Shown piece after piece: positions 16,471-29,619 of a DNA stretch of 64,000 nt (position 1 is its first letter; the number at the start of each line of letters is the position of its first letter). The stretch is from an uncultured Candidatus Saccharibacteria bacterium (GTDB lineage Bacteria; Patescibacteriota; Saccharimonadia; Saccharimonadales; CAZVRA01). Made by a program: the position numbers and the translations under genes. Location: assembly GCA_964630055.1 (NCBI GenBank), contig CAZVRA010000002.1, forward strand, positions 207,021-271,020, written 5' to 3'. The notes beneath the pieces were generated by a model. That model was given only the letters and a program-made list of their open reading frames with translations. It did no database searches and was not told where the DNA came from.

Positions 16471-17675
16471 GCCGAGCGATTGTTTTGTACCTGCATGTTC
16501 ATCAGCCTTTTCGGGTACGCAGCTACAGTATTTTTGACGCCGGGGTTAACCATAATTACTTTGATGCGCCATCTGGCAGCCGAGAAAACAACGCCGATAT
16601 TGTTCGCAAAGTGGCCCAAAAATCGTACCTCCCAACCAATCGCTGCTTGCAGCGCATGCTGGACACTCACCCCGATTTTAAATTGTCGATGTCAATTAGC
16701 GGTGTGGCGCTAGAGCAATTCGAAAAATTCGCACCAGATGTGCTGGACAGTTTTAAGCAGCTGGTGGCCACTGGCCGGGTCGAGCTGGTCGCCGAGACGT
16801 ATCATCATAGCCTGGCCTTTTTTTACAATCGGGACGAGTTCGAAATTCAGGTAAAAATGCACCGCCAGAAAATCCAGGAAATTTTTGGTGTCACACCAAC
16901 GGCCTTTCGCGGCACCGAGCTAACCTACAATAACGAGCTGGCCCATTGGGCCGACCAGGCGGGCTACCAGGTGATTTTGAGCGAGGGCTGGGACCCAGTG
17001 CTGGGTTGGCGCAGCCCAAATTTTGTTTATCGCCCGGCGCACACCCAAAATATTAAATTGCTGTGCAAAAATTACAAGCTCAGCGACGATATCGCTTTTA
17101 GGTTTGGCAACAAACAATGGCCCGAATACCCGCTAACCATTAGCAAATACATCAGTTGGTTAAACGTCAGTTGGGATCAGCCGCTAATTAATTTGTTTAT
17201 GGATTACGAAACTTTTGGTGAGCATCAATGGGAAGACACCGGAATATTCGACTTTTTGGAGGCCCTGCCTGGCGCCTGGCTGCACGGCCAAGACCACATT
17301 TTTATGACTTTAACAGAGGCGGCCAACCATTTTGAGCCAGCCGACACTGTCGATTGCCCGCAGACAATAACCTGGGCCGACACCGAGCGCGATCTAACTG
17401 CTTGGCTTGGCAACCAGATGCAGCAAGGTGCTATTGCCTCGCTTTATGGCTTGACCGAACCAATCCTCAAAACTGGCGACCTGGGTCTGATCGAGGATTG
17501 GCGCAAACTCCAGACCTCGGATCATTTTTACTACATGTGCACAAAGTGGTTCAACGACGGTGATGTTCATGCCTATTTTAGTCCTTATGAGTCGCCGTAT
17601 ATTGCAAATATCAATTTTATGAATGCTTATCATGACCTTCGGGCGCGATTAATTGAGCATGGACAGGAGGTTTAA
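16467..17675 (+). CDS. glycoside hydrolase family 57 protein
   Basis: LYLHVHQPFRV N-terminus and the MDYETFGEHQW motif are typical of GH57. Overlaps the upstream gene as ATGA. Confidence 0.8.
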   Translation: MSRAIVLYLHVHQPFRVRSYSIFDAGVNHNYFDAPSGSRENNADIVRKVAQKSYLPTNRCLQRMLDTHPDFKLSMSISGVALEQFEKFAPDVLDSFKQLVATGRVELVAETYHHSLAFFYNRDEFEIQVKMHRQKIQEIFGVTPTAFRGTELTYNNELAHWADQAGYQVILSEGWDPVLGWRSPNFVYRPAHTQNIKLLCKNYKLSDDIAFRFGNKQWPEYPLTISKYISWLNVSWDQPLINLFMDYETFGEHQWEDTGIFDFLEALPGAWLHGQDHIFMTLTEAANHFEPADTVDCPQTITWADTERDLTAWLGNQMQQGAIASLYGLTEPILKTGDLGLIEDWRKLQTSDHFYYMCTKWFNDGDVHAYFSPYESPYIANINFMNAYHDLRARLIEHGQEV

Positions 17676-19637
17676 GTGGGCAGACCAGTAATTCTTAGCA
17701 ATGGCCAGATGTTTGTGGGGCTGGACGAGCACGGCTTGGTGCACGATTTTTATTATCCTTATGTTGGTCTAGAAAACCTGACCACGGCTCGCAGCATGCA
17801 GCACAAAATTGGTGTCTGGACCGATGGCCATTTTTCGTGGATCGACGACGGAACCTGGCAGGTAACTACCGACTTTGAGCCGGGTGCGCTAATTAGCGAT
17901 ATTCGTTTGCATAGCGATCAATTGCAGGTTGGCTTGCACCTAAAAGATTACATCGACCCCGAATTTAACGCTTTGGTGCGCCGGATTCAGATTACTAATA
18001 GTGCGCCTGGCGGCCGAGAAATTCGGCTGTTTATGCACCAGGTTTTCGAGATTTCGCGGGATGGCCGATCCGACACGGCACTTTACGTGCCCGACCAGCA
18101 TTACATCCTGGACTACAAAGGTCGCTACAGCTTGCTAATTGGCGGCAAAGACGACTCCGGCGAGACGTTCGACCAGTATGCCATTGGCAATTATGCAATC
18201 GAGGGCAAGGCTGGTACGTTTAGGGACGCCGAAGACGGCGACCTTTCTAACAATCCGGTAGAGCACGGCGGTGTCGACAGCGTGATTCGCTTTAGCTTGC
18301 ATGTGGAACCGGGCAATCCGCGAACCGTCGATTACTGGGTGGCTGCGGCTAGCAGTCAGGCCGATGCTAGCGTGGTTCATGCCGCATTTACAGATGGCGA
18401 TATGAGTGGCCGGATCAAATACGCCCGACGGCACTGGCAAAAATGGTTAAATAATAGCTCTGCCAAGCTAGCCAAAGTACCGGCAAAGTTAAAAGTACCG
18501 CTGCAAAAATCGCTAATGATTATAAAAGCCCACTGCGATGACCGCGGCTCGGTGCTGGCCAGCGGCGACTCCAGCATTTATAATTACGGCCGCGATTACT
18601 ACTGTTATTGCTGGCCGCGCGACGCTTGTTATGCCCTCAAGCCACTAATCCGTCTTGGCTACTACGATGAGGCCAAAGCTTTTTTTGCCTTTGCTCGCGA
18701 CACCATGCACCCCGACGGTTATCTAATGCACAAATACCAGCCCGACCGGTCAATTGGCAGTACCTGGCATCCGTTGGTGCACGGCAAAAATGTTGAGCTA
18801 GCCATTCAGGAAGACGAAACAGCCATTGTGCTACACACAATTTACCAGTTTTTGGTTGCTAGCGGCGACAAAGATTTTGTCGAAAATTTGTACAACAAAC
18901 TAATTTTGCCTTGCGCTAACTTTTTAGCCAAATATGTCGATAAAGAGTCGGGTCTGCCGCACGCCAGCTACGACCTGTGGGAGCAGGTATTTTTAACCAC
19001 TACCTACTCTACCAGCGTGACGATTGCCGGGCTCGAAGCCGCTAGCGCTATCGCTACCGAGCTAGAACACCCTTCGGAGGCTGCTCGCTGGAAAAAGGCT
19101 GCCGCCGGATTCCGCCGCAATTTAGACAAATTATTTATTGCCCCAAGCGACAAACAGGCCGGCTACTTTAGGCGCGGCCAGCTACTTTTGCCGGGCGGCA
19201 ATTGGCAAACCAACGACAGCGTCGATATCGCCAGCCTGTACGGGCTATTTAGTTATGCCAAGTTGCCAGCCGATGATTTGCGCATGCAAGAAACCCTGGC
19301 CGCTGTCGAGCGGGACATATACAATAAGGGGCCAATCGGCGGTGTTATCCGTTATTTTGGTGACGATTATTTTTTGGCCAAGCCACAATATGGCGGTAAT
19401 CCGTGGGCCGTTTGTACACTGTGGTTAGCACAGTACTATGTGCAATTAGGGCGCATTGCCGAAGCCAGCGAGCTAGTAAGCTGGGCCCTGGCTCGCAGTT
19501 TGCCATCTGGAATTTTGAGCGAACAATTTGACCCCGAAGATGGCCGTCAACTGGGTGTTGCACCCTTGGTTTGGAGTCACGCCGAACTAATTAATACCAT
19601 TTTAGATTTGGCCGAACAAGACCAAGAGCCTAGCTAG
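17676..19637 (+). CDS. glycoside hydrolase family 15 (glucoamylase/glucodextranase-like)
   Basis: 653 aa with an (alpha/alpha)6-type C-terminal region (CWPRDA, YDLWEQ, NPWAVCTLWLAQYY). GTG start immediately after the GH57 stop. Confidence 0.8.
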   Translation: MGRPVILSNGQMFVGLDEHGLVHDFYYPYVGLENLTTARSMQHKIGVWTDGHFSWIDDGTWQVTTDFEPGALISDIRLHSDQLQVGLHLKDYIDPEFNALVRRIQITNSAPGGREIRLFMHQVFEISRDGRSDTALYVPDQHYILDYKGRYSLLIGGKDDSGETFDQYAIGNYAIEGKAGTFRDAEDGDLSNNPVEHGGVDSVIRFSLHVEPGNPRTVDYWVAAASSQADASVVHAAFTDGDMSGRIKYARRHWQKWLNNSSAKLAKVPAKLKVPLQKSLMIIKAHCDDRGSVLASGDSSIYNYGRDYYCYCWPRDACYALKPLIRLGYYDEAKAFFAFARDTMHPDGYLMHKYQPDRSIGSTWHPLVHGKNVELAIQEDETAIVLHTIYQFLVASGDKDFVENLYNKLILPCANFLAKYVDKESGLPHASYDLWEQVFLTTTYSTSVTIAGLEAASAIATELEHPSEAARWKKAAAGFRRNLDKLFIAPSDKQAGYFRRGQLLLPGGNWQTNDSVDIASLYGLFSYAKLPADDLRMQETLAAVERDIYNKGPIGGVIRYFGDDYFLAKPQYGGNPWAVCTLWLAQYYVQLGRIAEASELVSWALARSLPSGILSEQFDPEDGRQLGVAPLVWSHAELINTILDLAEQDQEPS

Positions 19638-19644
19638 TTTGTTG

Positions 19645-19845
19645 TTAGCGCTTTGGCGCTTCGTTGCGACCCAAAGATTTTTTGGTCTCGCTGTACCAAA
19701 CATGCTTACGCACCACGGGGTCATATTTGCGCAGACGCAGTTTGTCCGGCGTATTCATGGTGTTTTTCATGGTGTAATAGTGGCGATGACCGGTTTCCTC
19801 GGACACCAAGCCCACAATCTTGCGTTTATCGGTTTTCTTTGCCAT
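19645..19845 (-). CDS. rpmG: 50S ribosomal protein L33
   Basis: Only the last 66 codons of the 150 aa track ORF are used: [56 protein letters not shown]. This is L33-like (Cys-less type). Confidence 0.85.
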
Positions 19846-19896
19846 AGGTAAATAGTTTAACAGATTGATTAGCATTTGGCAACAGCTGCGAAAGCA

Positions 19897-19923
19897 TATA
19901 TCACGGTTAGGCCGTGATATAAT
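19897..19923 (+). promoter_or_regulatory. perfect 10 bp palindrome overlapping an extended -10 promoter for mazG (near-leaderless)
   Basis: TATATCACGG-ttagg-CCGTGATATA (19897..19921). TGaTATAAT at 19915..19923, with the ATG at 19930. Confidence 0.45.
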
Positions 19924-19929
19924 TTGGTT

Positions 19930-20262
19930 ATGAAATTTAGCGATTACCAGCAAAAAGCACCAGATACTGCCATTCACCACCCCGACTCGCTTATGGACCA
20001 GAGCATTTGGGCAATGGGCATAGCTGGTGAGGCTGGCGAAGTGATAGAAAAATGGAAAAAAATTGTTGCCTACAAAGACGGCGTCGTGTCGGCCCAAGAC
20101 AAGCAGGAGCTGGCCAAGGAATTGGGCGATGTTTTATGGTACATATCTTTGTTTGCCGATAGCTTAGGCCTAAAGTTAGAGGACATTGCCAGCAAGAATT
20201 TAGAAAAACTAGCCAGCCGCAAAGCCCGCGGTGTAACTAAAGGCGCTGGGGATAATCGCTAG
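19930..20262 (+). CDS. mazG: MazG-like nucleotide pyrophosphohydrolase
   Basis: 110 aa. [17 protein letters not shown] and [17 protein letters not shown] EExxE/D-type motifs. Confidence 0.8.
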
Positions 20263-20279
20263 CTGTAAAAGTCGTATCC

Positions 20280-20521
20280 TGGAGCATTTCTACCGAAACG
20301 CTAGAACCCATTTTAGCAAAAACCAACAGATAAGAACAGATGTGAAGTGGAAGAAAGAGGACAACCTGCGAAACCAGCCACGCCGTTTGCCAGCCAAAGG
20401 CTGACCCGCCCCGCCAGCCCTGGATTTTGATTGTTTTTGGATTTCCCCCGCCGAATTTCTTTTTTTGCATTGGAAAAATCCATGTCTGTCGGGTCGGCTG
20501 CCCACAAGGGCAGAAACGGCT
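20280..20521 (-). repeat. 242 bp inverted repeat, left copy (X-L)
   Basis: I checked it base by base. It is the perfect reverse complement of 23190..23431. Confidence 0.97.
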
Positions 20522-20533
20522 GCGGTATTCAAG

Positions 20534-22018
20534 CTAGACTGGCAACTCATTCATTAACTTTATAAACTGTGGTTCGACTTTAGGTTTAATCATCATCAAC
20601 ATTGTGGATATACCATTGTCTAGCCCAATATCTTTGATGTACTGCTGGCGTAAATGTGCTAGATGACTGCTTGTAAATTCTTCACCTGATTGAAATCCAA
20701 AATAATTCTTAAACTGCGCCATTCGCGCAAGTAATTCATCAGGGTTGCGTAGGTAATTTGGCTGATTCACAGAATTTTCATCAACTAATTGGTTGTAGAT
20801 ATCCCAGTCAAAGCCACTCCTTACTTCTGTAACAGCCGAGCCCTTGACGTCAACCATGCCGTGATATGCTTCGTGTCCAGCGATAATATCTTTTTGTCTA
20901 TCTGTAAGCTGATTCCCAGCTTGATTGGCGGCATCAGAATAGATTGTTCCAGTTTTTCCTATCTTACCGTGTCCTAGACTACCTTGCGATTTGCCACTAA
21001 CATCTTGTGCTTTGCCATAGCCCACAGCAGAGTAAACTCTTGTGAGATTATCATCAAACTGATCTAATTGAGCCTGGTAGTGCGTCTGAAAGTTTTCAGG
21101 CTTGTCTAGCACCGACCGTGTAACCCCTGGCTCAAGTGAGTTAATGTGGTTAGAAATGAATCTGGTGAATTTTTCTCGAAAATCCGGTGACTGCATACGC
21201 TGGAGCTGCAAATTAAACCAGTTTCCTTGGTAGTTTGCTGTTTCGGCGACAGAAATCTGTTCAGTATCAAGATTCTGTGCGCTTGCTAAAATTTCCTGCG
21301 CTCTAGCTTCTATAGTTTGGCGGACAGTTGCTTCCATTGTTTCAGTAATCGGCATACCATAAACAGCGTGTGCAAAACCTTCCGAAAATGCTTCGTGGTC
21401 TTTGTTGTCGCTATGCCACTCATCGGCTTCTCGTCCATATCTTGTAGGGCTTTCACTAGCAGCGACACGATGATATGCCTCGCCAGTTTTTGTTTGTCCA
21501 TCTAGTACATGTCCGATTTCGTGTACCAGCGTATATTCTAACGCACCGCCAGATCGTTGCTCGTCAGGAAAACCAGCAAGTTCGTCGGCACTGTACGAGC
21601 CGCTTACTTGTTTCATTTCTGCAACGCTCAAAAGCATTTTTCTCCCGTTAAGCAGCACCTGATTTTCTTCTGCTACTGCTTTTGCGCCGCCCCCTGCAAC
21701 ATCCTCGCCGATTTTTATATGTAGTCCTGTAAAAATGTCAGTGGCTCTGCCGCCTGTAAAGCGGTCAATGGCTTCTAACGCGCCAGTCGTAGACGCAATA
21801 AGTTGTTGTTCTTCTTCTGGTGAATAGCCTGGCATTACCTCAACCAAAACCCTACACTCGCCAGCGCTAGACATACACATCAAAGCCTCACCGTTTTCGT
21901 GATGAACTTCAGAAAAATGTTCTGGGTGTTCTGGTCTGTTGAATGTCTCGGTGTAATTTCCGTCGTCTGTTGTATCGTGCGCTCTAAGCGCTGGATTATC
22001 CGTCAGCTGCTCACTCAT
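20534..22018 (-). CDS. hypothetical protein with two HExxH metallopeptidase-like motifs
   Basis: Start chosen at ATG 22018 (MSEQLTDNP), an 8 nt overlap with the upstream gene. LVHEIGHVLDG is at nt 21509..21523 and is followed by HEAFSEGFAHAV. A second AGHEAYHGM is at nt 20861..20875. No signal peptide is obvious. Confidence 0.7.
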   Translation of the reverse strand: MSEQLTDNPALRAHDTTDDGNYTETFNRPEHPEHFSEVHHENGEALMCMSSAGECRVLVEVMPGYSPEEEQQLIASTTGALEAIDRFTGGRATDIFTGLHIKIGEDVAGGGAKAVAEENQVLLNGRKMLLSVAEMKQVSGSYSADELAGFPDEQRSGGALEYTLVHEIGHVLDGQTKTGEAYHRVAASESPTRYGREADEWHSDNKDHEAFSEGFAHAVYGMPITETMEATVRQTIEARAQEILASAQNLDTEQISVAETANYQGNWFNLQLQRMQSPDFREKFTRFISNHINSLEPGVTRSVLDKPENFQTHYQAQLDQFDDNLTRVYSAVGYGKAQDVSGKSQGSLGHGKIGKTGTIYSDAANQAGNQLTDRQKDIIAGHEAYHGMVDVKGSAVTEVRSGFDWDIYNQLVDENSVNQPNYLRNPDELLARMAQFKNYFGFQSGEEFTSSHLAHLRQQYIKDIGLDNGISTMLMMIKPKVEPQFIKLMNELPV

Positions 22019-23147
22019 TATCAATCCCCAGAGACCGTCCCGATATAACACGAGCGTTTTTAACAAAGTCAATCACAGACGCCTTAGCTTGTTCGGTCGT
22101 CCCCACATATCTGCCAGGAGTAGTATTGGCATAAGCATCAAAAACGATAATTGTACTCTCGATTTTAGCAATAAATGGTGCTACGCCAATTACTTTTTGA
22201 TGATCCTTGTTAGGTTGTAAAATAGTTCGGCCATCAGACTGATAAACTACATTGCAAGGCAACAATGTCGGGGTGTCATATTGCTCTTTTTTCTTTTCGT
22301 ATTTTATTTTTCCCCAGACACCCGTATATTCACGTAGTTTCTCGTAATCACAGCTGCCAGATAAAATGAAAAGGTTCTCAATTACATCGTCATACTTTGC
22401 TTCTGCGAATCTGATAGTTCCCTGAGGTGTTTCGAATTTTGCATGGATGTACATAATACTTGAGTTGTCGTTCGGGTCATCTTGACGTGTATCAATACCG
22501 ACTTTATCAAAATAAGAGGTGTCTGGTGCATAAAGGTCAAAATCAAAACCTTTCTCTAAAGTTGAATTTTCTGGCACTGTAGCTGAGTTTGAGCTGCCAG
22601 TACTCTGGTTATTTGCAGTATAATTTCCTGAAAGCGAAAGCGCTAGTACTAACACGAATCCAGTACAAAGTTTGATTAAGATATTGTTGTTACTTGAAAC
22701 AAGCACATATGAACAGAAATATACGATTGCACAAATAATTATCAATACGGGTGTAAAAATGTAAGTAGTTATGCCTGCCAAAGCTGTCGCAATTGAACGC
22801 CACGCTATCATTACCAGTGCAGTTCCTAATATTGCCTGTACGAATGGTCGACGATAGTTCAATTGCTTCAGCAGCAGTCCACTTGCAACAGTAATCACTA
22901 CAGGCGTCACCACGGTGAGAATCATTCCGATTAAGTTGCTAAATGCAAGCGCCAATGCCAGGCCGGATAATCCATTGCTGAACGCATCCTCCGCTGAGCC
23001 AAATATGACTTTTACAACAACAAGGTTTAGCAAAAACATAGCAGGTATCTGTAAACCACCAATAATTAAGGGAGGATAAACGGAAGACTCCAAGTTGTAG
23101 TCGGTTATATTATTGTATTTTGGATTATAAAAGTTTGTATTTTTCAT
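22011..23147 (-). CDS. multi-pass membrane protein with ~190 aa soluble C-terminal domain, unknown function
   Basis: 378 aa. About 5-6 hydrophobic helices in the first ~190 aa, then an Asn/Ser-rich linker and a globular-looking tail. Lies in an AT-rich region. Confidence 0.7.
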   Translation of the reverse strand: MKNTNFYNPKYNNITDYNLESSVYPPLIIGGLQIPAMFLLNLVVVKVIFGSAEDAFSNGLSGLALALAFSNLIGMILTVVTPVVITVASGLLLKQLNYRRPFVQAILGTALVMIAWRSIATALAGITTYIFTPVLIIICAIVYFCSYVLVSSNNNILIKLCTGFVLVLALSLSGNYTANNQSTGSSNSATVPENSTLEKGFDFDLYAPDTSYFDKVGIDTRQDDPNDNSSIMYIHAKFETPQGTIRFAEAKYDDVIENLFILSGSCDYEKLREYTGVWGKIKYEKKKEQYDTPTLLPCNVVYQSDGRTILQPNKDHQKVIGVAPFIAKIESTIIVFDAYANTTPGRYVGTTEQAKASVIDFVKNARVISGRSLGIDNE

Positions 23148-23189
23148 CTTTTGTCCTAGTCATATCATATCATGTTTCATCGAAGCTTT

Positions 23190-23431
23190 AGCCGTTTCTG
23201 CCCTTGTGGGCAGCCGACCCGACAGACATGGATTTTTCCAATGCAAAAAAAGAAATTCGGCGGGGGAAATCCAAAAACAATCAAAATCCAGGGCTGGCGG
23301 GGCGGGTCAGCCTTTGGCTGGCAAACGGCGTGGCTGGTTTCGCAGGTTGTCCTCTTTCTTCCACTTCACATCTGTTCTTATCTGTTGGTTTTTGCTAAAA
23401 TGGGTTCTAGCGTTTCGGTAGAAATGCTCCA
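23190..23431 (+). repeat. 242 bp inverted repeat, right copy (X-R)
   Basis: Perfect reverse complement of 20280..20521. Ends in GCTCCA (23426..23431). Confidence 0.97.
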
Positions 23432-23562
23432 AAACCGGACTTAAATTGGAATTGTCGCCCTCTTGGGCGATTTTTTCTTTGGCGGTGCGAAGCACCAGCC
23501 AAAGATTTTCTTGGGGGGAATGAGATTTTGGGTCGCTGGAAGCGACCGCAATTTTGGTTTTG
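23426..23562 (-). repeat. 137 bp inverted repeat B' (inverted copy of the recombinase 3' end plus tRNA-proximal junction)
   Basis: Reverse complement of 25108..25244 with a single mismatch (23529 vs 25141, synonymous in the recombinase frame). Confidence 0.95.
23455..23476 (+). terminator. intrinsic terminator-like hairpin inside B' (plus-strand sense)
   Basis: TCGCCC-tctt-GGGCGA followed by TTTTTT. It is the mirror of the tRNA-Thr terminator in repeat B. Confidence 0.5.
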
Positions 23563-23582
23563 CCCGCCGTAGGCGGTTTTTT
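23563..23582 (+). terminator. short GC hairpin plus T-run just outside B'
   Basis: CCGCC-gta-GGCGG followed by TTTTTT. Only the plus strand has the U-tract after the stem. Confidence 0.4.
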
Positions 23583-23590
23583 GTTATAAT
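23582..23590 (+). promoter_or_regulatory. extended -10 promoter candidate for the recombinase gene
   Basis: TGtTATAAT, about 118 nt upstream of the recombinase ATG. Confidence 0.4.
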
Positions 23591-23597
23591 CGTAAGT

Positions 23598-23670
23598 GGA
23601 TACAATCAGCTCAAGAGAGGTCTTTTTTAATGGCCGTCCCAGACAAACAAGATTTCTCTTGATTGTATCC
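23598..23670. promoter_or_regulatory. imperfect inverted repeat in the recombinase 5' region
   Basis: GGATACAATCAgctcAAGAGA (23598..) pairs with TCTCTTGATTGTATCC (23655..23670). The arms are 11+6 bp and are separated by about 37 nt. Confidence 0.4.
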
Positions 23671-23707
23671 AACTGGGGCGGTCATTAAAATTATGGGGGT
23701 AATTTCT

Positions 23708-25303
23708 ATGAATCAAAATCGCTACATTTTGTATGCTCGTAAGAGTACGGATGTTGAGGACAAGCAAGTTTTGAGCATTGAAGCACAGTTAGCAGAACTT
23801 CGGAACTACGCCAGAGATAACGGTCTAGTCGTGGTGGACACTGTTATTGAGAAAAAGTCCGCCAAAACTCCAGGCCGTCCGAAGTTCGGCGATGTCCTAC
23901 AACGCATACAAAATGGCGAAGCCACCGCAATTTTGGCGTGGCACCCCGATAGACTTGCCAGAAATAGTATAGACGGCGGACAAATTATCTATTTACTAGA
24001 CCAAAAGCATTTAGCCGACTTGAAGTTTCAGACATTTTGGTTTGAGAACACATCACAGGGCAAGTTTATGTTGTCTATCGCTTTTGGTCAGAGCAAATAC
24101 TATGTAGATAATTTGTCAGAGAACACCAAGCGTGGGCTTCGCGCGAAAATTCGGCGTGGCGAGTTTCCTGGTATTGCTCCGTTTGGCTATTACAACAACA
24201 CCAAGAGTAAGACGGTGCATATAGATAAACGCCAAGCCAAATTAGTTGAAGCGATTTTTGTTTTATATTCTTTGGGGCAAAGCACTTTTCAAGATATAGC
24301 CGACTATTTGTTTGAGCGTGGCATAAAAACCAGCGGCGGCAAGCCATACAGCAAAGACAAGGTAAAGTATATCTTGAAAAACCCGTTTTATTACGGTCAT
24401 TTCATTTACGGCGGCGAGATTTACGCGGGCAAACATACGCCCATTATTAGCAAGAAACTTTTTGATAAAGTGCGGACCGTCATAAAACAGCGAAGCCACC
24501 CGACTAAAGGCTTGATAGAGCCACAAGCCTACTGCGGACTACTCCGTTGCAACTGCGGTATGATGATAACTGCCGAAAACAAAACGAAACGGCAGAAAAA
24601 TGGCAATACACACCACTATATCTATTACAGGTGTAGCCGTAAGAATAGAACTGTGAAATGTACTGAACCTGCCGTTCGTTCTGAACTATTAGATCAGCAG
24701 TTATCTGATTTGTTGGCTGGCTTCGCCATGCCCCAAGAATATGCGGACAAAATGCGTGAGATGGCTAGTGCTGACGAACTCACTGAAAAAGCCAAGATAG
24801 ACGGCAAAATTGACAGTTTGCGGACAGACATCACGCATTTGTCCGAGAAATTACAAAGACTGTTGGACGGCTTCCTTGATGGCGTTTTGGAGCGTGATAT
24901 TTACACCCAAGAAAAAGCCAAAATTATGAGCCACAAGAAAACCATTGAAGAACAAATGAGCGATTTGGCATTAGGCACTTTGGAATGGGTTGAACCGCTG
25001 AATAATTGGCTAGAAAAAGCCGTTTCTATCTGTAAAATCGCTCAATCTACTGACCAAAACGCCAAAAAGTCGTTGCTACTGGAAATCTTTGGGTTGAACC
25101 TGTTTCTCAAAACCAAAATTGCGGTCGCTTCCAGCGACCCTAAATCTCATTCCCCCCAAGAAAATCTTTGGCTGGTGCTTCGCACCGCCAAAGAAAAAAT
25201 CGCCCAAGAGGGCGACAATTCCAATTTAAGTCCGGTTTTGGAGCCACGAGCCGGGATTGAACCGGCGACCTCATGCTTACCATGCATGCGCTCTGCCAAC
25301 TGA
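23708..25303 (+). CDS. large serine recombinase
   Basis: MNQNRYILYARKSTDVEDKQVLSIEAQ (catalytic Ser motif). Also a resolvase core, a recombinase domain, a Cys-rich zinc ribbon (CGLLRCNCG...YYRCSRKNRTVKC) and a coiled-coil. The ORF has no stop until 25301..25303, so it reads through repeat B and antisense into the tRNA-Thr gene. Confidence 0.9.
   Translation: MNQNRYILYARKSTDVEDKQVLSIEAQLAELRNYARDNGLVVVDTVIEKKSAKTPGRPKFGDVLQRIQNGEATAILAWHPDRLARNSIDGGQIIYLLDQKHLADLKFQTFWFENTSQGKFMLSIAFGQSKYYVDNLSENTKRGLRAKIRRGEFPGIAPFGYYNNTKSKTVHIDKRQAKLVEAIFVLYSLGQSTFQDIADYLFERGIKTSGGKPYSKDKVKYILKNPFYYGHFIYGGEIYAGKHTPIISKKLFDKVRTVIKQRSHPTKGLIEPQAYCGLLRCNCGMMITAENKTKRQKNGNTHHYIYYRCSRKNRTVKCTEPAVRSELLDQQLSDLLAGFAMPQEYADKMREMASADELTEKAKIDGKIDSLRTDITHLSEKLQRLLDGFLDGVLERDIYTQEKAKIMSHKKTIEEQMSDLALGTLEWVEPLNNWLEKAVSICKIAQSTDQNAKKSLLLEIFGLNLFLKTKIAVASSDPKSHSPQENLWLVLRTAKEKIAQEGDNSNLSPVLEPRAGIEPATSCLPCMRSAN
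25108..25244 (+). repeat. 137 bp inverted repeat B (recombinase 3' coding end up to the tRNA 3' terminus)
   Basis: See B'. Its last 6 nt (TGGAGC) are the complement of the tRNA-Thr 3' end GCTCCA. Confidence 0.95.
25194..25215 (-). terminator. intrinsic terminator 24 nt downstream of tRNA-Thr(GGT)
   Basis: The minus strand reads TCGCCC-tctt-GGGCGA followed by TTTTTT. It is encoded antisense within recombinase codons (EKIAQEGD). Confidence 0.6.
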
Positions 25304-25314
25304 GCTATCGCGGC
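25239..25314 (-). tRNA. tRNA-Thr (GGT)
   Basis: GCCGCGA/TCGTGGC acceptor, GCTC..GAGC D-arm, CATGC/GCATG anticodon stem with loop ATGGTAA, GCCGG-TTCAATC-CCGGC T-arm, encoded TCCA. Confidence 0.92.
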
Positions 25315-25912
25315 ATTTCTGGACTTCGTTGACAATTATGTCTCTAAATTTTTTATTATGAAAGTAAACGGTAAGCACGCCATTTTTATTTTTGTGACGA
25401 TACGTTCCAACTTTCGTGGATATTGTAACAGTTATTTTGTAAAATTGCGAACTTTCTGCGCCAACTTTTGTCATCCAAAATTTTTTTGCAGATTCTGCAT
25501 CAACATCCGAAAATATTTGCAAGCCAAAACGAAGATCAGCAAAGGAAACATCATAAATTTCAATTAAGAACTTAATAAACACCTTTATTAGATCTGGATC
25601 TGTATTTCCTAGTCTGACCGAGTACTTATTGGCCTTATTACCTTCTCCCCAGTATAGTCCTATGCCAATGCCAAAAAGCAAGGCATTAGCCTCAAATATT
25701 TTAGGATTAGGATTAAATGGGTCTCCATGCGGGTTGTTCTTGCAATATAGGGCTTCACTCCTTGAGCGTCTTGGTATACCATACCTATCCATCCAGTATT
25801 GGACTTTATGAATCGAGCAGTTTAATGTGCTGGCAACCTCTTTCATAGAAAGTCTCTGCACAGTATACAATTCTTGAAGCTTCTTCTTCTCGATCTTAGT
25901 CATTTTGGGCAT
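25277..25912 (-). CDS. HTH + LAGLIDADG-like homing endonuclease family protein (putative)
   Basis: N-terminal HTH-like LSMKEVASTLNCSIHKVQYWMDRYGI. The single LLFGIGIGLYWGEGNK block resembles a LAGLIDADG motif. The last 38 nt overlap the 5' half of tRNA-Thr, and the stop TAA lies in the anticodon loop. Confidence 0.55.
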   Translation of the reverse strand: MPKMTKIEKKKLQELYTVQRLSMKEVASTLNCSIHKVQYWMDRYGIPRRSRSEALYCKNNPHGDPFNPNPKIFEANALLFGIGIGLYWGEGNKANKYSVRLGNTDPDLIKVFIKFLIEIYDVSFADLRFGLQIFSDVDAESAKKFWMTKVGAESSQFYKITVTISTKVGTYRHKNKNGVLTVYFHNKKFRDIIVNEVQKCRDSSVGRAHAW

Positions 25913-25958
25913 AGAGCGATTCTAACATACAAATCGATAGAACCTTGTAAACAGGTGA

Positions 25959-26267
25959 TTATAGTCCATTACGGTCCTGGTAGGACTCTAATATTCTGGC
26001 TGACCTTATTTCTGCTTGCCTGGCCTCGCTGTAGTCACTGATATTTATTTTGGTAATAATTCCGAGTAGTGCGGCGCTACCGAGGCTTATCGCTGCAGCT
26101 TGGTAATGTTCGGTGGCTACATTGATTACGGTCAGCGCTGCTTCTGCGGCTACACCAACAGATGTAAATACCAGCGCTCTGCCACATGCTTTACGCATTT
26201 TTTCATCAGCAACATTGTCTAACTGCCGTTGATGATATTCGTTAGAAAAATCGGAGGCTTCTGTCAT
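25959..26267 (-). CDS. small membrane protein, hypothetical
   Basis: 102 aa with two hydrophobic helices. AT-rich context between tRNA genes. Confidence 0.45.
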   Translation of the reverse strand: MTEASDFSNEYHQRQLDNVADEKMRKACGRALVFTSVGVAAEAALTVINVATEHYQAAAISLGSAALLGIITKINISDYSEARQAEIRSARILESYQDRNGL

Positions 26268-26357
26268 GTTACCGTCCCTGCGCTGTTTACTTAGTATTCG
26301 GTTTATTCGTATTATACATCTGTTGTGCTATATAATGATGACTTTAGGAAAATTATG

Positions 26358-26705
26358 TCAAGGTTTGACGTTGACCAGTCCGTAGATTGGTAGCAAGATT
26401 ATTTCAGAAATAATAAAAAATATCAGTGGCGATAAAACTAATGGGGTTATAAAAAATACTAATAACTGATTCCGCTTAGTTTGCTCTTTGATGGTGGTTT
26501 TGAAATAAGATAAAGCTGCAACCCCAGATAAAATAAGACCGATACCAATGCTAATAATTACCAAGGGCTGGTTGAATCCTATTGCTTGATCAGTATGCTG
26601 GATTTGAAGCTGTAGGACTTTACTGATTATCATTGCCTGACCAAAAAAGGCAATAATTGATACCAAAAATACGTAAAAATAAGGTGATTTTACATTTGGT
26701 TTCAT
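26358..26705 (-). CDS. small multi-pass membrane protein, hypothetical
   Basis: 115 aa with 3 hydrophobic helices. Confidence 0.5.
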   Translation of the reverse strand: MKPNVKSPYFYVFLVSIIAFFGQAMIISKVLQLQIQHTDQAIGFNQPLVIISIGIGLILSGVAALSYFKTTIKEQTKRNQLLVFFITPLVLSPLIFFIISEIILLPIYGLVNVKP

Positions 26706-26838
26706 CGTTCTTACTGTGACCTAGCCTTAGAATTATTAGTAATTGCCCAACGAACTTTGTACATTGACTTATTGCTTGCAGGACATTTCATATTATAACT
26801 ATATATAAAAGTTCTGACGTTCACAACGCGTCTATGTG

Positions 26839-26924
26839 TGGTGCAGGGAGAGGGATTCGAACCCCCGAAGGCGAATGCCAGCAGATTTACAGTCTGCCGT
26901 GTTTGACCGCTTCACTATCCCTGC
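26839..26924 (-). tRNA. tRNA-Tyr (GTA)
   Basis: GCAGGGA/TCCCTGC acceptor, anticodon loop CTGTAAA, long variable arm (bacterial class II Tyr), T-loop TTCGAAT, encoded ACCA. Confidence 0.9.
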
Positions 26925-26950
26925 AAATATTAAGAATTGTTAAGTTTGTT

Positions 26951-27027
26951 TGGAGCCGCCTGTCGGATTCGAACCGACGACCCTCGGTTTACAAAACCGA
27001 TGCTCTAACCAACTGAGCTAAGGCGGC
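26951..27027 (-). tRNA. tRNA-Thr (TGT)
   Basis: GCCGCCT/AGGCGGC acceptor, anticodon stem TCGGT/ACCGA with loop TTTGTAA, GTCGG-TTCGAAT-CCGAC T-arm, encoded TCCA. Confidence 0.92.
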
Positions 27028-27089
27028 AGATGCGCGCGACACTATATAATCGTTACATGGCGCTGCAAATTAGTGTAGCAAAACAGGGG

Positions 27090-27746
27090 TTAAATAACAA
27101 CCCGCCTGGTTGGGCGAATTACGCGTTTTGGCTTGCCCTTGGGCACTACCAGTTTGCGCAAACGCTGCTCGACTTGGTCGGCAGCCTCGGCCAGCCCGTT
27201 ATTGCGGTAGGCTCCCTCTAGTAATTGCAGCGTTTCTTTGTTGGGCTCCAGCTCGACGGCTCGCTCTAGTTCCTCTATCATGCGCTTATGGTTGCCTAAT
27301 TTTTCTTGGACTTTGGCATAAGCAATATGACGAGCGGCAAATTGGTCTTCGAGCTTAAGGGCTTGCTCAAAGGCAATAGCCGCTTTTTCGTAATTTTCGG
27401 TTTCGTAATAAATGAGCCCTAAGTTGTGCAGGCTGGAAGGCGTGGCCTCTATGCTGCTGGCAATTTCGAAGCAATCTATGGCGTCGCGGTACTCTTTTTG
27501 TTTGGCGTATAAAATGCCTAGGCGGTTGTAGGCGGCGGCGTTTCGTTGGTCGATTTTAAGAATTGTCAGCAAGGCCTTTTCGGCCCGCAAACTGCGGTTT
27601 TCGCGCATGCCCTGATGGGCAATGTCCCACAACTTCCCGACTTTGTCGGTTATTTTACGCGGAAATTCGGATAGTTCTTCGTTGCGAATCCGACTGTTTT
27701 TTATGGCTAGTAGCCCAAAGCCAAGGACCAATGCAAGTTCGTACAT
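27090..27746 (-). CDS. membrane-anchored tetratricopeptide repeat protein
   Basis: N-terminal hydrophobic helix, then repeated AxxYxxLGxxYxxxxxYxxAIxxFExAL TPR units. Confidence 0.75.
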   Translation of the reverse strand: MYELALVLGFGLLAIKNSRIRNEELSEFPRKITDKVGKLWDIAHQGMRENRSLRAEKALLTILKIDQRNAAAYNRLGILYAKQKEYRDAIDCFEIASSIEATPSSLHNLGLIYYETENYEKAAIAFEQALKLEDQFAARHIAYAKVQEKLGNHKRMIEELERAVELEPNKETLQLLEGAYRNNGLAEAADQVEQRLRKLVVPKGKPKRVIRPTRRVVI

Positions 27747-27799
27747 GTGCCTAATAGTATAGCATATTTATTGTTTTGCCCGAATTTTTGCGCTAGGCG

Positions 27800-28732
27800 T
27801 TAAAGGTTTAAAAACAGATTGGTCAGTAAAAGTTTAGAGTTTGGATTAGCTTGCAGCGAATCTTGGGACATAACTATGGCTTCTAGCCGTCTGTTCCAAG
27901 CTTTAATTTGGCCTGTTGGCTGATTTTTGGCCGATAAAGACGCCTGGGCTATTTGGCTAATAGCTGCCATAGAAATGCGCTGCAGAGCATCCAACAGGGG
28001 CGGAATTGTGTCTTTTTGCTTGCTAAAACTGTCTACGCTGCATAAGCGTTCAAATTTGGTTTGGCGCAGTAGCTTTTTGGCTTGCTCAATACTCTTGTTC
28101 AGCGACTCAGTGTCCTTGCCTTTTAGAATGTTCTCTAGCAAAACAGATTGGCCGCCGCTTAAATGGTATGCCTTTGTAATGTCTGCCTGTCTAAAGCCCA
28201 AAGCACCGAAATACTTTTGAGCATCAGGTAAGCCAATTGCCTGCACCAATAATTGCCTGCACCGCGAAGTAATAGTCGGCAGCATGGCTTCGGCTTGGGT
28301 AGCTATCAAAAAAAGTACTGTGTCATTTGGTGGTTCTTCCAAAAGTTTGAGCAGCGCATTCTGCGCTTCGGTGGTTTGCTGCTCGGCCTGATGCAGTATG
28401 ATTAGCCGTCTAATGTGGTCTGTGGCCGAGTTTTGGACTGAGCCTTTGGGTTCAGATCTGGGTATTTTTAATTTGGTGAAATTTATGGCACTGCGAATAT
28501 CATCGATGCCAGATGGTGACTTTTGCCCCAATATTAGGACGTAAGGATTTTTGCTCAAATCAATGGTGTTACTGGCCGCACTGCCTAGCAGTTGCCAAGC
28601 CAAATATTCGACTATTTGCCGACGGCCACTGCCAGCCGCCCCCGTCACCAGCAAGGCATGAGTGGGGTCACTTAAAAAAGAGTCAATTTGGGCTTTAGTA
28701 GCTTGATTAATGGCGAGTTTCGGCGTGCTCAT
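27800..28732 (-). CDS. holB: DNA polymerase III subunit delta'
   Basis: HALLVTGAAGSGRRQ P-loop-like, LLKLLEEPP box, and TITSRCRQL sensor motif. Confidence 0.8.
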   Translation of the reverse strand: MSTPKLAINQATKAQIDSFLSDPTHALLVTGAAGSGRRQIVEYLAWQLLGSAASNTIDLSKNPYVLILGQKSPSGIDDIRSAINFTKLKIPRSEPKGSVQNSATDHIRRLIILHQAEQQTTEAQNALLKLLEEPPNDTVLFLIATQAEAMLPTITSRCRQLLVQAIGLPDAQKYFGALGFRQADITKAYHLSGGQSVLLENILKGKDTESLNKSIEQAKKLLRQTKFERLCSVDSFSKQKDTIPPLLDALQRISMAAISQIAQASLSAKNQPTGQIKAWNRRLEAIVMSQDSLQANPNSKLLLTNLFLNL

Positions 28733-29619
28733 AGATCAGCCGTCTTAGTTTTTTTGGCCTGGGCCGATAGTTGCTGGTCGAATTCTGCTGGAATCTTGGC
28801 TTTAAAAACTTTTGTTGCACCATTAGGCAGAGTTATTGCTAGTTGACTGGCGTGTAAAAAAACTCGGCTAGACGGTGCGGCTCCATAAAGTGTGTCACCA
28901 ACAATTGGGTGTCCAAAATGCGCCATATGAACTCGCAACTGATGAGTGCGGCCTGTCTTTGGCATCAGCTGGACCAGACTGAGTCCGTTAGCTTGGCTAA
29001 TTGTCTGATAAATAGTTTCGGCTGGCTTGCCACCCGCTCCAACCCTAAAAGTTTGTGGTTTTTTGGGGTTACGCTCTATTGGCATATCTATTAAAGCAGC
29101 TTCGGGCTTGAGGTTTCCCTCAACAATGGCCACGTAAGTTTTTTGCACCTGGCGTTCGGCAAATTGTTTTTGTAGCCACTGGTAAGCCTCGGTCGTTTTG
29201 GCGCAAATAATTACGCCCGAAGTTATCCGGTCCAACCTATGCACAATTCCGCCTCGCTCTTTGCCGGGATCATCTATTTGTGGCTCGATAAAAGTCGCAA
29301 CTGTAGCCTCTGGGTTAAAGCCGCCTTTGCTATGTGTTAGCAGGCCAGCAGGTTTGTTGATGACTAGGCAGTCACTATCTTGGTACAAAATTGGTAAATC
29401 AATCTGAGGTATGTCGCTCGATGTTAATGGATTATAGTCGGCCTCTACAGTGTCGCCTGACTTTATTTTTGTGCCTGGCTTGGTGACGACTTTGCCGTTT
29501 AGCCTAACGGCGCCCTCCTTGCACAGGTGGCTGACTAATGAGCGGCTTAAGCCCCCTAGCTCGCGTAACACATAGGTATCTAGTCTTTCTGGATGGTCTA
29601 TTTGGACAACTTTTTTCAT
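28729..29619 (-). CDS. rluD: RluA-family 23S rRNA pseudouridine synthase
   Basis: N-terminal S4 domain, catalytic HRLDRITSGVIICAKT, and TGRTHQLRVH motif. Confidence 0.85.
   Translation of the reverse strand: MKKVVQIDHPERLDTYVLRELGGLSRSLVSHLCKEGAVRLNGKVVTKPGTKIKSGDTVEADYNPLTSSDIPQIDLPILYQDSDCLVINKPAGLLTHSKGGFNPEATVATFIEPQIDDPGKERGGIVHRLDRITSGVIICAKTTEAYQWLQKQFAERQVQKTYVAIVEGNLKPEAALIDMPIERNPKKPQTFRVGAGGKPAETIYQTISQANGLSLVQLMPKTGRTHQLRVHMAHFGHPIVGDTLYGAAPSSRVFLHASQLAITLPNGATKVFKAKIPAEFDQQLSAQAKKTKTADL

Follow-up and report, generated by a model that had tools for sequence, protein, structure and literature searches.

What is the 242 bp sequence that stands twice, as a perfect inverted repeat, beside a large serine recombinase gene in the genome of an uncultured Candidatus Saccharibacteria bacterium? 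An initial annotation of this stretch had proposed that the unit, here called X, is a structured RNA, pointing to its lack of stop codons and to the terminators that follow it. We analysed X within a 64,000 nt window of the genome (GCA_964630055.1, contig CAZVRA010000002.1), and all coordinates given are positions in this window. Our results securely identify X as the cargo-side arm of an attachment (att) site of a small, tRNA-targeting large-serine-recombinase island. Equally secure is the finding that a new conserved fold occupies the inner 150 nt of X, as a module separate from the outer ~45 nt, which comparison between elements shows to be the predicted recombinase-binding arm.

The features that had drawn attention to X are real. 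The repeat, 23190-23431 (+) against 20280-20521 (-), is identical at 242/242 positions, and the identity stops directly past the hexamer GCTCCA. No TAA, TAG or TGA occurs in any frame on the plus strand between 23189 and 23396; this run of 207 nt, put at ~204 nt in the initial annotation, is the longest such gap in the window, the next longest on this strand being 177 nt, and the other X copy gives a 216 nt gap on the minus strand. Three overlapping open reading frames (ORFs) of 64-90 amino acids (aa) are found at both copies, GGCTGG is present at 23292, 23316 and 23332, and the centre is GC-rich (55% in the folded domain versus 46% in the window). A stop-free run as long or longer arose in 0/5000 mononucleotide shuffles and with P ~0.01 in dinucleotide-preserving shuffles (n = 5000), and is thus moderately unusual. 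X is also poor in TA, with 4 TA per 242 nt unit, and 5 observed against ~15 expected in a 244 nt stretch. Twelve homologous X units contain 4-12 forward stops each, with longest gaps of 50-153 nt, so that freedom from stops, taken earlier as a clue to structure, is absent in homologues. We infer that the run is a by-product of composition and chance, a fortuitous clue and not a trait of the family. The minimum-energy fold of the single unit is likewise not unusual (z ~ -1.3 on either strand). We rejected a protein-coding unit: the three ORFs have no Pfam match, and homologues carry stops scattered over all frames as well as insertions or deletions of 1-3 nt inside helices.

X is an arm of a tRNA-targeting integration site

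The hexamer GCTCCA is the last six bases (discriminator plus CCA end) of tRNA-Thr(GGT), and the island is shown to be inserted in the 3' end of this gene. X overlaps in this hexamer, the core, with a second inverted repeat, Y (23426-23562 versus 25108-25244, core included; 136/137 identical as reverse complement), and the resulting order is host, X', cargo, X-core-Y, integrase, Y'-core', tRNA (Table 1). Three sites share the core, so that X arms in inverted orientation enclose the cargo and Y arms, likewise inverted, enclose the integrase gene; the two outer sites, A and C, are the products expected from recombination of an attP (X, Y) with an attB (tRNA, host flank). Y restores the tRNA trailer and its terminator. 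The two hairpins with T runs after X-R, which had been noted as possible terminators of an X transcript, were both recovered by a terminator scan, on the plus strand only; as evidence for an RNA they lose their force, since they belong to a copy of the tRNA-Thr trailer and lie after X-R because the integrase gene is preceded by a copy of Y. Y flanks this gene on either side and there serves at least as a terminator block, shielding it from cargo transcripts and from tRNA read-through. Were the island excised through sites A and C, the product would be a circle in which two inverted attP copies separate integrase from cargo. We recovered no free circle and no alternative isomer, the short integrase contigs being all integrated contexts or broken at repeats. 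An exact look-up of the MazG protein returned no record, and no empty site was recovered.

A recombinase scan of one genome per species yielded 26 related loci (numbered with the prefix L), mostly labelled Saccharibacteria and a few with another or no taxon label. Every locus with enough sequence had nested inverted pairs (L002, L003, L005 with two elements, L008, L010-L013, L015, L017, L019, L020, L026, L049 and L050), about 16 elements altogether, with X of 69-302 nt, Y of 56-165 nt and copies that are 88-100%, mostly 97-100%, identical within a pair. Fifteen elements, one of them that of the window and the others from 14 loci, had the same A/B/C junction scheme, with integrase identities of 52-91%. 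At every locus the core of 5-6 nt is identical to the 3'-terminal 5-6 nt of the target tRNA (Thr-GGT, Thr-CGT, Lys-TTT, Lys-CTT, Gln or Tyr), and the 3' end of the integrase gene always adjoins the tRNA, which is tRNA-Gly in the distant member L022. The flank that adjoins site A in L005 looks like a native tRNA trailer. The start of many contigs falls precisely at X or within it, which is where repeats would be expected to break an assembly. One and the same element is present in L019 and L005, in two tRNA-Thr genes whose flanks are unrelated; its two copies are 99.5% identical over 5241 bp, a stretch bounded precisely by sites A and C. This identity indicates that the unit, including its internal site, moves as a whole.

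The inner part of X is a conserved four-way junction

When we aligned the 330 nt upstream of the core, the helix sequences were found to differ between elements yet to remain complementary. Five helices make up a four-way junction that has almost no unpaired junction bases (Table 1). P3 and P3b are capped by an A-rich apical loop of ~50 nt with the nearly invariant sequence TTCGGCGGGGGAAATCC at 23256-23272; across elements the loop has the nearly invariant, purine-rich consensus UUCGGCGG(G/A)GGAAAUC. Helix P2 is the hairpin CTGCCC-ttgt-GGGCAG (23198-23213) already seen in the initial annotation, and it is real and conserved. A second local helix placed there at 23229..23273 gives way to a different pairing, because comparison instead supports GGATTTT (23230-23236) with AAAATCC (23283-23289).

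The same four-way junction was obtained independently by single-sequence folding in at least 10 homologues, and RNAalifold on MAFFT-only alignments gave the same structure, with 19/33 pairs changed on both sides; these two results are free of model-fitting bias. A covariance model built from eight sequences matched both X copies in the window and nowhere else in its 64 kb, plus 15 related loci. Among 18 distinct sequences, 91.7% of cells were paired, versus 35-48% when partners were slid by 1-3 columns; 29/40 pairs were changed on both sides, with all five helices contributing, and the covariation score was 0.52 versus 0.17 in shuffles, a value reached in 0/500 of them, these figures being somewhat inflated by the fitting of this alignment to the model. 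Sequence identity of the domain (0.68-0.86) is near that at integrase third codon positions (~0.72), which indicates that the constraint is on pairing and not on sequence. A search of Rfam 15 (E <= 1; window 17000-29000, L012, L021 and L054), the check that the initial annotation had suggested, returned tRNAs and chance matches and no family for the fold. The structure proposed there to span 300-400 nt is restricted to the inner 150 nt, and the attP-like junction and the plus-strand terminator that follows it were correctly recognized.

Copies of the fold have diverged in several elements. The perfect repeat spans only part of the domain in L008, L012, L013 and L050, where the diverged 5' parts still align, more weakly in one copy. 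L026 has a degenerate copy at site B (29 bits) and its only good copy on the site A side, and L011 has a single copy, at site B. What is retained seems to be one intact fold copy, on either side of the cargo. Two extra hairpins, GCGCGnAGCGCG and GGCGGCTTTGCCGCC or TCGGCTCTGCCGA, and after them AAAGC, lie 5' of P1 in L008, L012, L013, L019, L021, L026, L050 and L054; they are not present in the window. With these hairpins included, the full domain may be ~200 nt. A LOOT RNA (Rfam RF03000, 77.8 bits) at L021:6694-6811 (+), 2.8 kb upstream of the fold, appears unrelated.

The outer part of X resembles a recombinase-binding arm

The linker and P arm have an identity between elements of 0.83-0.98, versus 0.72-0.75 at integrase third codon positions. 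The most conserved part of X has the form (TGn)TAAAAT-rGGTTCTAGCG-N7-10-core; AAAATrGGTTCTAGCG occurs in nearly all elements, and TGnTAAAAT is kept in most, three or four being without it. TGcTAAAAT may be part of the recombinase binding site instead of a promoter. A related motif, GGAAtT, stands at the mirror position in Y. The initial annotation had allowed that only the ~50 bp next to the hexamer might be conserved; this is contradicted by the covarying inner 150 nt, and the outer 45 nt are, as it foresaw, recombinase-binding DNA in all likelihood.

Parts of this arm look like tRNA. GGTTCTAGCG (23403-23412) resembles the T-arm GGTTCRAnnCC, and its distance from the core exceeds that of the T-arm in tRNA by ~4 nt. 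The hairpin GCGTTTC-GGTA-GAAATGC (23410-23427), followed by T-CCA, resembles a tRNA acceptor minihelix and begins about where a transcript driven by TGcTAAAAT would. Its 5' strand tracks the type of core (AGC/GCU for Thr and Lys, GUGGG/CUCAC for Tyr, CUCG/UGAG for Gln), and the hairpin also varies in a compensating manner in L048 and L053.

The fold may act as an RNA read toward the core

How might the fold act? Judged from sequence, its being read as RNA toward the core is the single most likely mode, with a probability close to, and perhaps a little short of, one half. The best explanation as a whole, an att-arm island whose fold works in trans as a core-directed RNA, seems to us evenly poised between right and wrong. 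Cargo transcripts would carry the fold as their tail or, in the case of X-R, a weak promoter at 23141-23168 would drive its transcription; termination would occur at T1 for site B and at the native tRNA terminator for site A, and the product would act in trans for the element. Action in trans is preferred to that of a cis leader because a single intact copy appears to suffice, whichever side of the cargo it occupies. In the window, L008, L011, L013, L019 and L026, the last cargo ORF co-oriented with a fold copy either overlaps the fold or stops 0-50 nt short of it, and no terminator separates the two, so that cargo transcripts must run through the fold. Strong terminators lie past the core at site B, T1 and T2 being on the plus strand only, and by eye a terminator-like hairpin with a T run lies at site A in most loci; the scan found none at site A in the window. 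A promoter-like sequence, TTTTCA-16-TATCAT (23141-23168, +), stands just upstream of X-R and points into it. Back-to-back, overlapping -10-like boxes (23141-23172) lie in the 42 nt that separate the first cargo gene from X-R, on the plus strand into X and on the minus strand into the cargo; the latter, TGATATGAT (23172-23164), reads as an extended -10 pointing into the cargo.

Several observations weigh against an RNA. About one promoter match like that at 23141-23168 is expected by chance in the region, and no promoter is conserved upstream of the fold across elements. The fold helices are 90% Watson-Crick, with G-U in 1.7% and A-C in 3.2% of cells; in the integrase leader described below, G-U reaches 10.3% and A-C 3.2% (Fisher p = 1.3e-4), and more than half of the aligned T1 stems have a G-U pair, as judged by eye and not counted with a tool. 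RNAalifold gives -50.1 for the opposite strand and -43.8 for the core-directed strand. A structured non-coding RNA is expected to have G-U well above A-C and a promoter and terminator of its own; here G-U is the rarer of the two and the terminator is shared with the tRNA trailer repeat. The constraint looks two-stranded and fits a single-strand signal, or both transcripts, about as well as one RNA. The structural support itself comes from 18 distinct sequences in one phylum, and the fitted alignment flatters the structure. Use of both attP copies for integration predicts a flipped integrase, and the integrase is never found in the opposite orientation. Of the proposal that X is a structured RNA, the conserved fold with its compensatory variation holds; its identity as RNA is called into question by helices without a G-U excess.

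Some of these observations speak for a fold that acts as single-stranded DNA (ssDNA), a reading we take seriously and consider doubtful. The fold would then be a priming or single-strand initiation signal, or an accessory recombination structure, in the replicating excised circle or during completion of a strand taken up by natural transformation. Its pair statistics have no strand bias, unlike those of the leader and, by eye, the T1 stems; both strands fold about equally well, the junction is almost without unpaired bases and no conserved promoter precedes it. The copies form an inverted pair, which would give each DNA strand one functional copy, and the RSF1010 origin has just such an arrangement, with ssiA and ssiB, one per strand. 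No replication or transfer protein is encoded by the element (Pfam and translations), which means that the signal would need host enzymes. However, ssDNA action presupposes a single-stranded stage of the element; with both copies on one strand the 242 nt repeat would pair arm with arm and not locally, L011 and L026 have only one good copy, and low G-U is also possible in very G+C-rich RNA helices. Alternatively, the opposite strand could be the functional one, an RNA from the core inward serving as a leader or insulator for outside transcription that enters the cargo bay. Read on that strand, the helices have more G-U (3.2%) than A-C (1.7%) and a better consensus energy; in the window, the first cargo gene has X-R upstream of it on its own strand, and, with no terminator past MazG, host transcription can enter X-L in this sense. 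We nevertheless consider this improbable: neither the linker nor the att arm has a conserved promoter-like motif on that strand, the window cargo appears to own the extended -10 TGATATGAT, the orientation of cargo relative to the fold is not fixed and the sole copy of L011 would be antisense to the cargo end.

Two further explanations fare worse. Passive duplication, or plain double-stranded protein-binding DNA in which the helices are palindromic sites and the stop-free run is chance, would agree with a run that is not conserved, a single-sequence z of only -1.3 and outer 45 nt that truly look like binding DNA, and gene conversion alone could keep the repeats 98-100% identical. It is very unlikely all the same, because five nested helices, some of them long-range, keep their pairing through two-sided changes, the diverged copies (L008, L012, L013 and L050) still score over most or all of the model, and dimer binding sites do not produce nested long-range complementarity. 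The slimmest chance goes to a guide or bridge-type RNA that steers the recombinase to its tRNA, or to a small protein such as a directionality factor. X does adjoin the donor junction and lie upstream of the recombinase gene, a placement that it shares with the bridge RNAs of IS110 elements; integrases that are close relatives target different tRNA genes, and ORFs of 64-90 aa exist. However, the longest identical or complementary stretches between X and tRNA are 5-8 nt, no better than in shuffles (9 loci, the GGGTTC mimic excepted), the recombinase is a canonical large serine integrase where an IS110-type system would have a DEDD/RuvC-like one, and the small ORFs, lacking Pfam matches, are broken in homologues by stops and 1-3 nt insertions or deletions.

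Two other roles for a core-directed RNA were tried and rejected. Pairing between the apical loop and the integrase leader gave duplex energies equal to those of shuffled controls, and the predicted sites were not homologous between loci. A cis leader of the integrase gene is unlikely, as two to three terminators lie between fold and gene and the single good copy may sit beyond the cargo.

The integrase gene has a structured leader of its own

The recombinase has the domains of a large serine integrase (Pfam E-values of 5e-24 for Resolvase, 7e-20 for Recombinase and 2e-7 for the zinc ribbon), and its nearest solved relatives are SPbeta SprA/YokA and the A118 integrase. Its last 65 codons (25108-25303, +) extend across Y-R and the core into the antisense of tRNA-Thr, which implies that the C-terminal tail of the protein would change on excision. 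Y-L contains T1, a conserved hairpin (23480-23507), a G run and a further hairpin (23536-23553). The Y-L hairpins recur with altered sequence in 20 loci, and the compensating manner in which the Y hairpins vary argues against a strong protein constraint on the integrase tail.

Between T2 and the ribosome-binding site, two interleaved helices make up a pseudoknot in the integrase leader. Helix A pairs 23598-23619 with 23654-23670 (GGATACAATC..AGAGAG with CTCTCTTGA..TTGTATCC), and helix B pairs 23629-23642 with 23673-23686 (AATGGCCGTCCCAG with CTGGGGCGGTCATT). In a structure-blind alignment of 14 loci, 85.5% of this leader was paired versus ~40% in slid controls, and 22/31 pairs were changed on both sides. 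The pseudoknot probably regulates integrase expression.

Table 1. Features of the island and of repeat unit X, in window coordinates.
Feature	Position	Strand	Remarks
Arm X-R	23190..23431	+	Cargo-side (P) arm of internal attP-like site B; ends in core GCTCCA
Arm X-L	20280..20521	-	Copy of X; ends in core at site A, 18 nt past MazG stop codon
Site A	20280		X, core, host flank (end of MazG gene); attR-like
Site B	23426		X, core, Y; attP-like, intact, inverted; between cargo and integrase gene
Site C	25244		tRNA, core, Y; attL-like
Folded domain, copy R	23188..23337	+	Four-way junction; cmsearch 156.6 bits
Folded domain, copy L	20374..20523	-	cmsearch 155.4 bits; begins 13 nt past last cargo stop (ORF end 20534), same strand
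P1	23191-23197 with 23323-23329	+	Closes junction
P2	23198-23203 with 23208-23213	+	Hairpin
P3	23214-23225 with 23294-23305	+	Long stem with P3b
P3b	23230-23236 with 23283-23289	+	
P4	23306-23312 with 23316-23322	+	Hairpin
Linker, fold to att arm	23338..23395	+	Found only in close relatives of the window element, highly conserved there
TGcTAAAAT	23393..23401	+	Extended -10-like, toward core; missed by two-hexamer promoter scan
Recombinase P arm	23403..23431	+	Next to crossover; core GCTCCA at 23426-23431
Arm Y-L	23432..23562	+	Inverted copy of tRNA-Thr trailer and integrase 3' end; carries T1
Terminator T1	23454-23477	+	Scan: 23454-23471 plus T run; within Y-L
Terminator T2	23560-23582	+	Scan: 23560-23576 plus T run
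TGtTATAAT	23582-23590	+	Integrase promoter-like, read from sequence; directly after T2
Integrase 5' leader	23598..23686	+	Two interleaved helices (pseudoknot); ends just before ribosome-binding site
Large serine recombinase gene	23708..25303	+	531 aa; Pfam Resolvase, Recombinase, Zn_ribbon_recom
Arm Y-R	25108..25238	-	tRNA-Thr trailer provided by element
tRNA-Thr(GGT)	25239..25314	-	Integration target; ARAGORN; Rfam tRNA 65 bits
Cargo	20534..23147	-	Two ORFs, 512 aa and membrane-like 378 aa, between X-L and X-R; no Pfam match

Cargo varies between elements

The integrase is the sole gene common to the elements; directionality factors are too diverse to be excluded by sequence. Cargo is unrelated between elements and lies in either orientation. 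A reverse transcriptase and a methylase are backed by Pfam matches, and the other cargo names come from reading translations alone: ribokinase-like, metallo-beta-lactamase-fold, an adenylosuccinate-lyase-like fusion, acetyltransferases, a short-chain dehydrogenase and threonyl-tRNA synthetase. This last is a full-length ORF of 612 aa, again named from its translation, at L020:6031-7869 (-), in an element that targets tRNA-Thr. L011 and L026 have in common the integrase region, the left flank and one cargo gene, which is inverted and has passed from the X-L side to the X-R side; this inversion indicates that the cargo segment flipped between the X arms during evolution.

Two elements depart from the common form. 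At L005:11149-14348, ~0.9 kb from the first element of that locus, a second and more distant one (integrase ~54% identical, tRNA-Tyr, core CACCA) carries, where the four-way junction would stand, a shorter hairpin module, TTCGGCGGGTCG..CGACCCGCCGAA. An IMG/VR contig, L056:4777-10221, carries an integrase-less derivative next to tRNA-Gly, with inverted X-type arms that are 85% alike and the fold at the left arm only. Its cargo is an HpaII-type restriction-modification pair and a Gabija-like pair (an ATPase-TOPRIM protein and a UvrD-like helicase), and the integrase segment was apparently lost by deletion between the Y arms. L056 was the one locus that the fold pattern found in viral collections. 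There, the att pattern had zero matches, and the 18 matches to an att-arm 17-mer were chance-like or lay in an unrelated phage intergenic region, with neither fold nor recombinase context. Collections of annotated phages and plasmids showed no similarity to the element.

Implications

Genome engineers prize large serine recombinases, for which short DNA sites and a protein directionality factor are generally considered sufficient. The retention across this family of an unannotated, conserved 150 nt fold and of an inverted attP suggests an unrecognised layer of control or of the life cycle. It is a long shot that the fold is a nucleic-acid cofactor, whether an RNA that replaces the directionality factor or controls the integrase, or a single-strand signal that primes replication of the circle. 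If single-strand priming were true, the triple-site layout would be a device for 2-micron-like amplification or cargo exchange in bacteria without plasmids and conjugation. Saccharibacteria have very small genomes and few known mobile elements. The elements described here would represent a simple cargo-shuttling system in them, with cargo that includes metabolic, restriction-modification, Gabija-like, reverse transcriptase and threonyl-tRNA synthetase genes, and the fold offers a testable candidate for a previously undescribed class of RNA or ssDNA motif.

Relation to known systems

The recombinase has the three domains of phage large serine integrases (SPbeta SprA, A118, Bxb1 and phiC31), and it shares with them a short identical core, the logic of attP x attB giving attL and attR, and a roughly symmetrical arm motif ~17-26 nt from the core. 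The island differs from them in targeting the 3' end of a tRNA, in keeping an extra, inverted and intact attP-like site, in having no recognisable directionality factor gene and in the conserved fold that flanks its P arm. The geometry is that of the invertible G segment of Mu (Gin) and C segment of P1 (Cin), where inverted repeats (0.6 kb in P1) with outer crossover sites enclose a variable segment beside the recombinase gene and the variable segment occurs in both orientations, as does the cargo here. The likeness to the serine invertase switches (Hin, Gin and Cin) is one of geometry alone: the enzyme of the island is a 531 aa protein with large-integrase domains and not a small invertase with a C-terminal helix-turn-helix, the whole unit is mobile between tRNA genes, and the cargo genes are complete either way round. 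The predicted excised circle, with X-core-Y twice in inverted orientation and the integrase and cargo segments between, would have the layout of the yeast 2-micron plasmid; that plasmid uses a tyrosine recombinase, FLP, whereas the circle here is only predicted and the integrase segment is never flipped.

A fold conserved in structure beside a recombinase site and flanking variable cassettes is also found in integron attC sites and in the STAXI and HEARO families of Rfam, motifs of mobile elements with a possible action as RNA or as ssDNA. The fold of X has no Rfam match and, as a 150 nt junction 65-110 nt from the crossover, is not itself the recombination site; the recombinase acts here on double-stranded DNA. 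In titles and abstracts of the library searched we found no account of the nested layout, or of a structured RNA or element beside a serine integrase site, and the words non-coding and ncRNA are absent from the tycheposon preprint. Tycheposons of Prochlorococcus, together with Islander-type islands, are likewise small and inserted in tRNA 3' ends, restore the tRNA, place the recombinase gene next to it and carry variable accessory or defence cargo; they differ in having direct repeats, mostly tyrosine recombinases and, in many cases, replication genes. Tycheposons are the nearest described elements to the island reported here.

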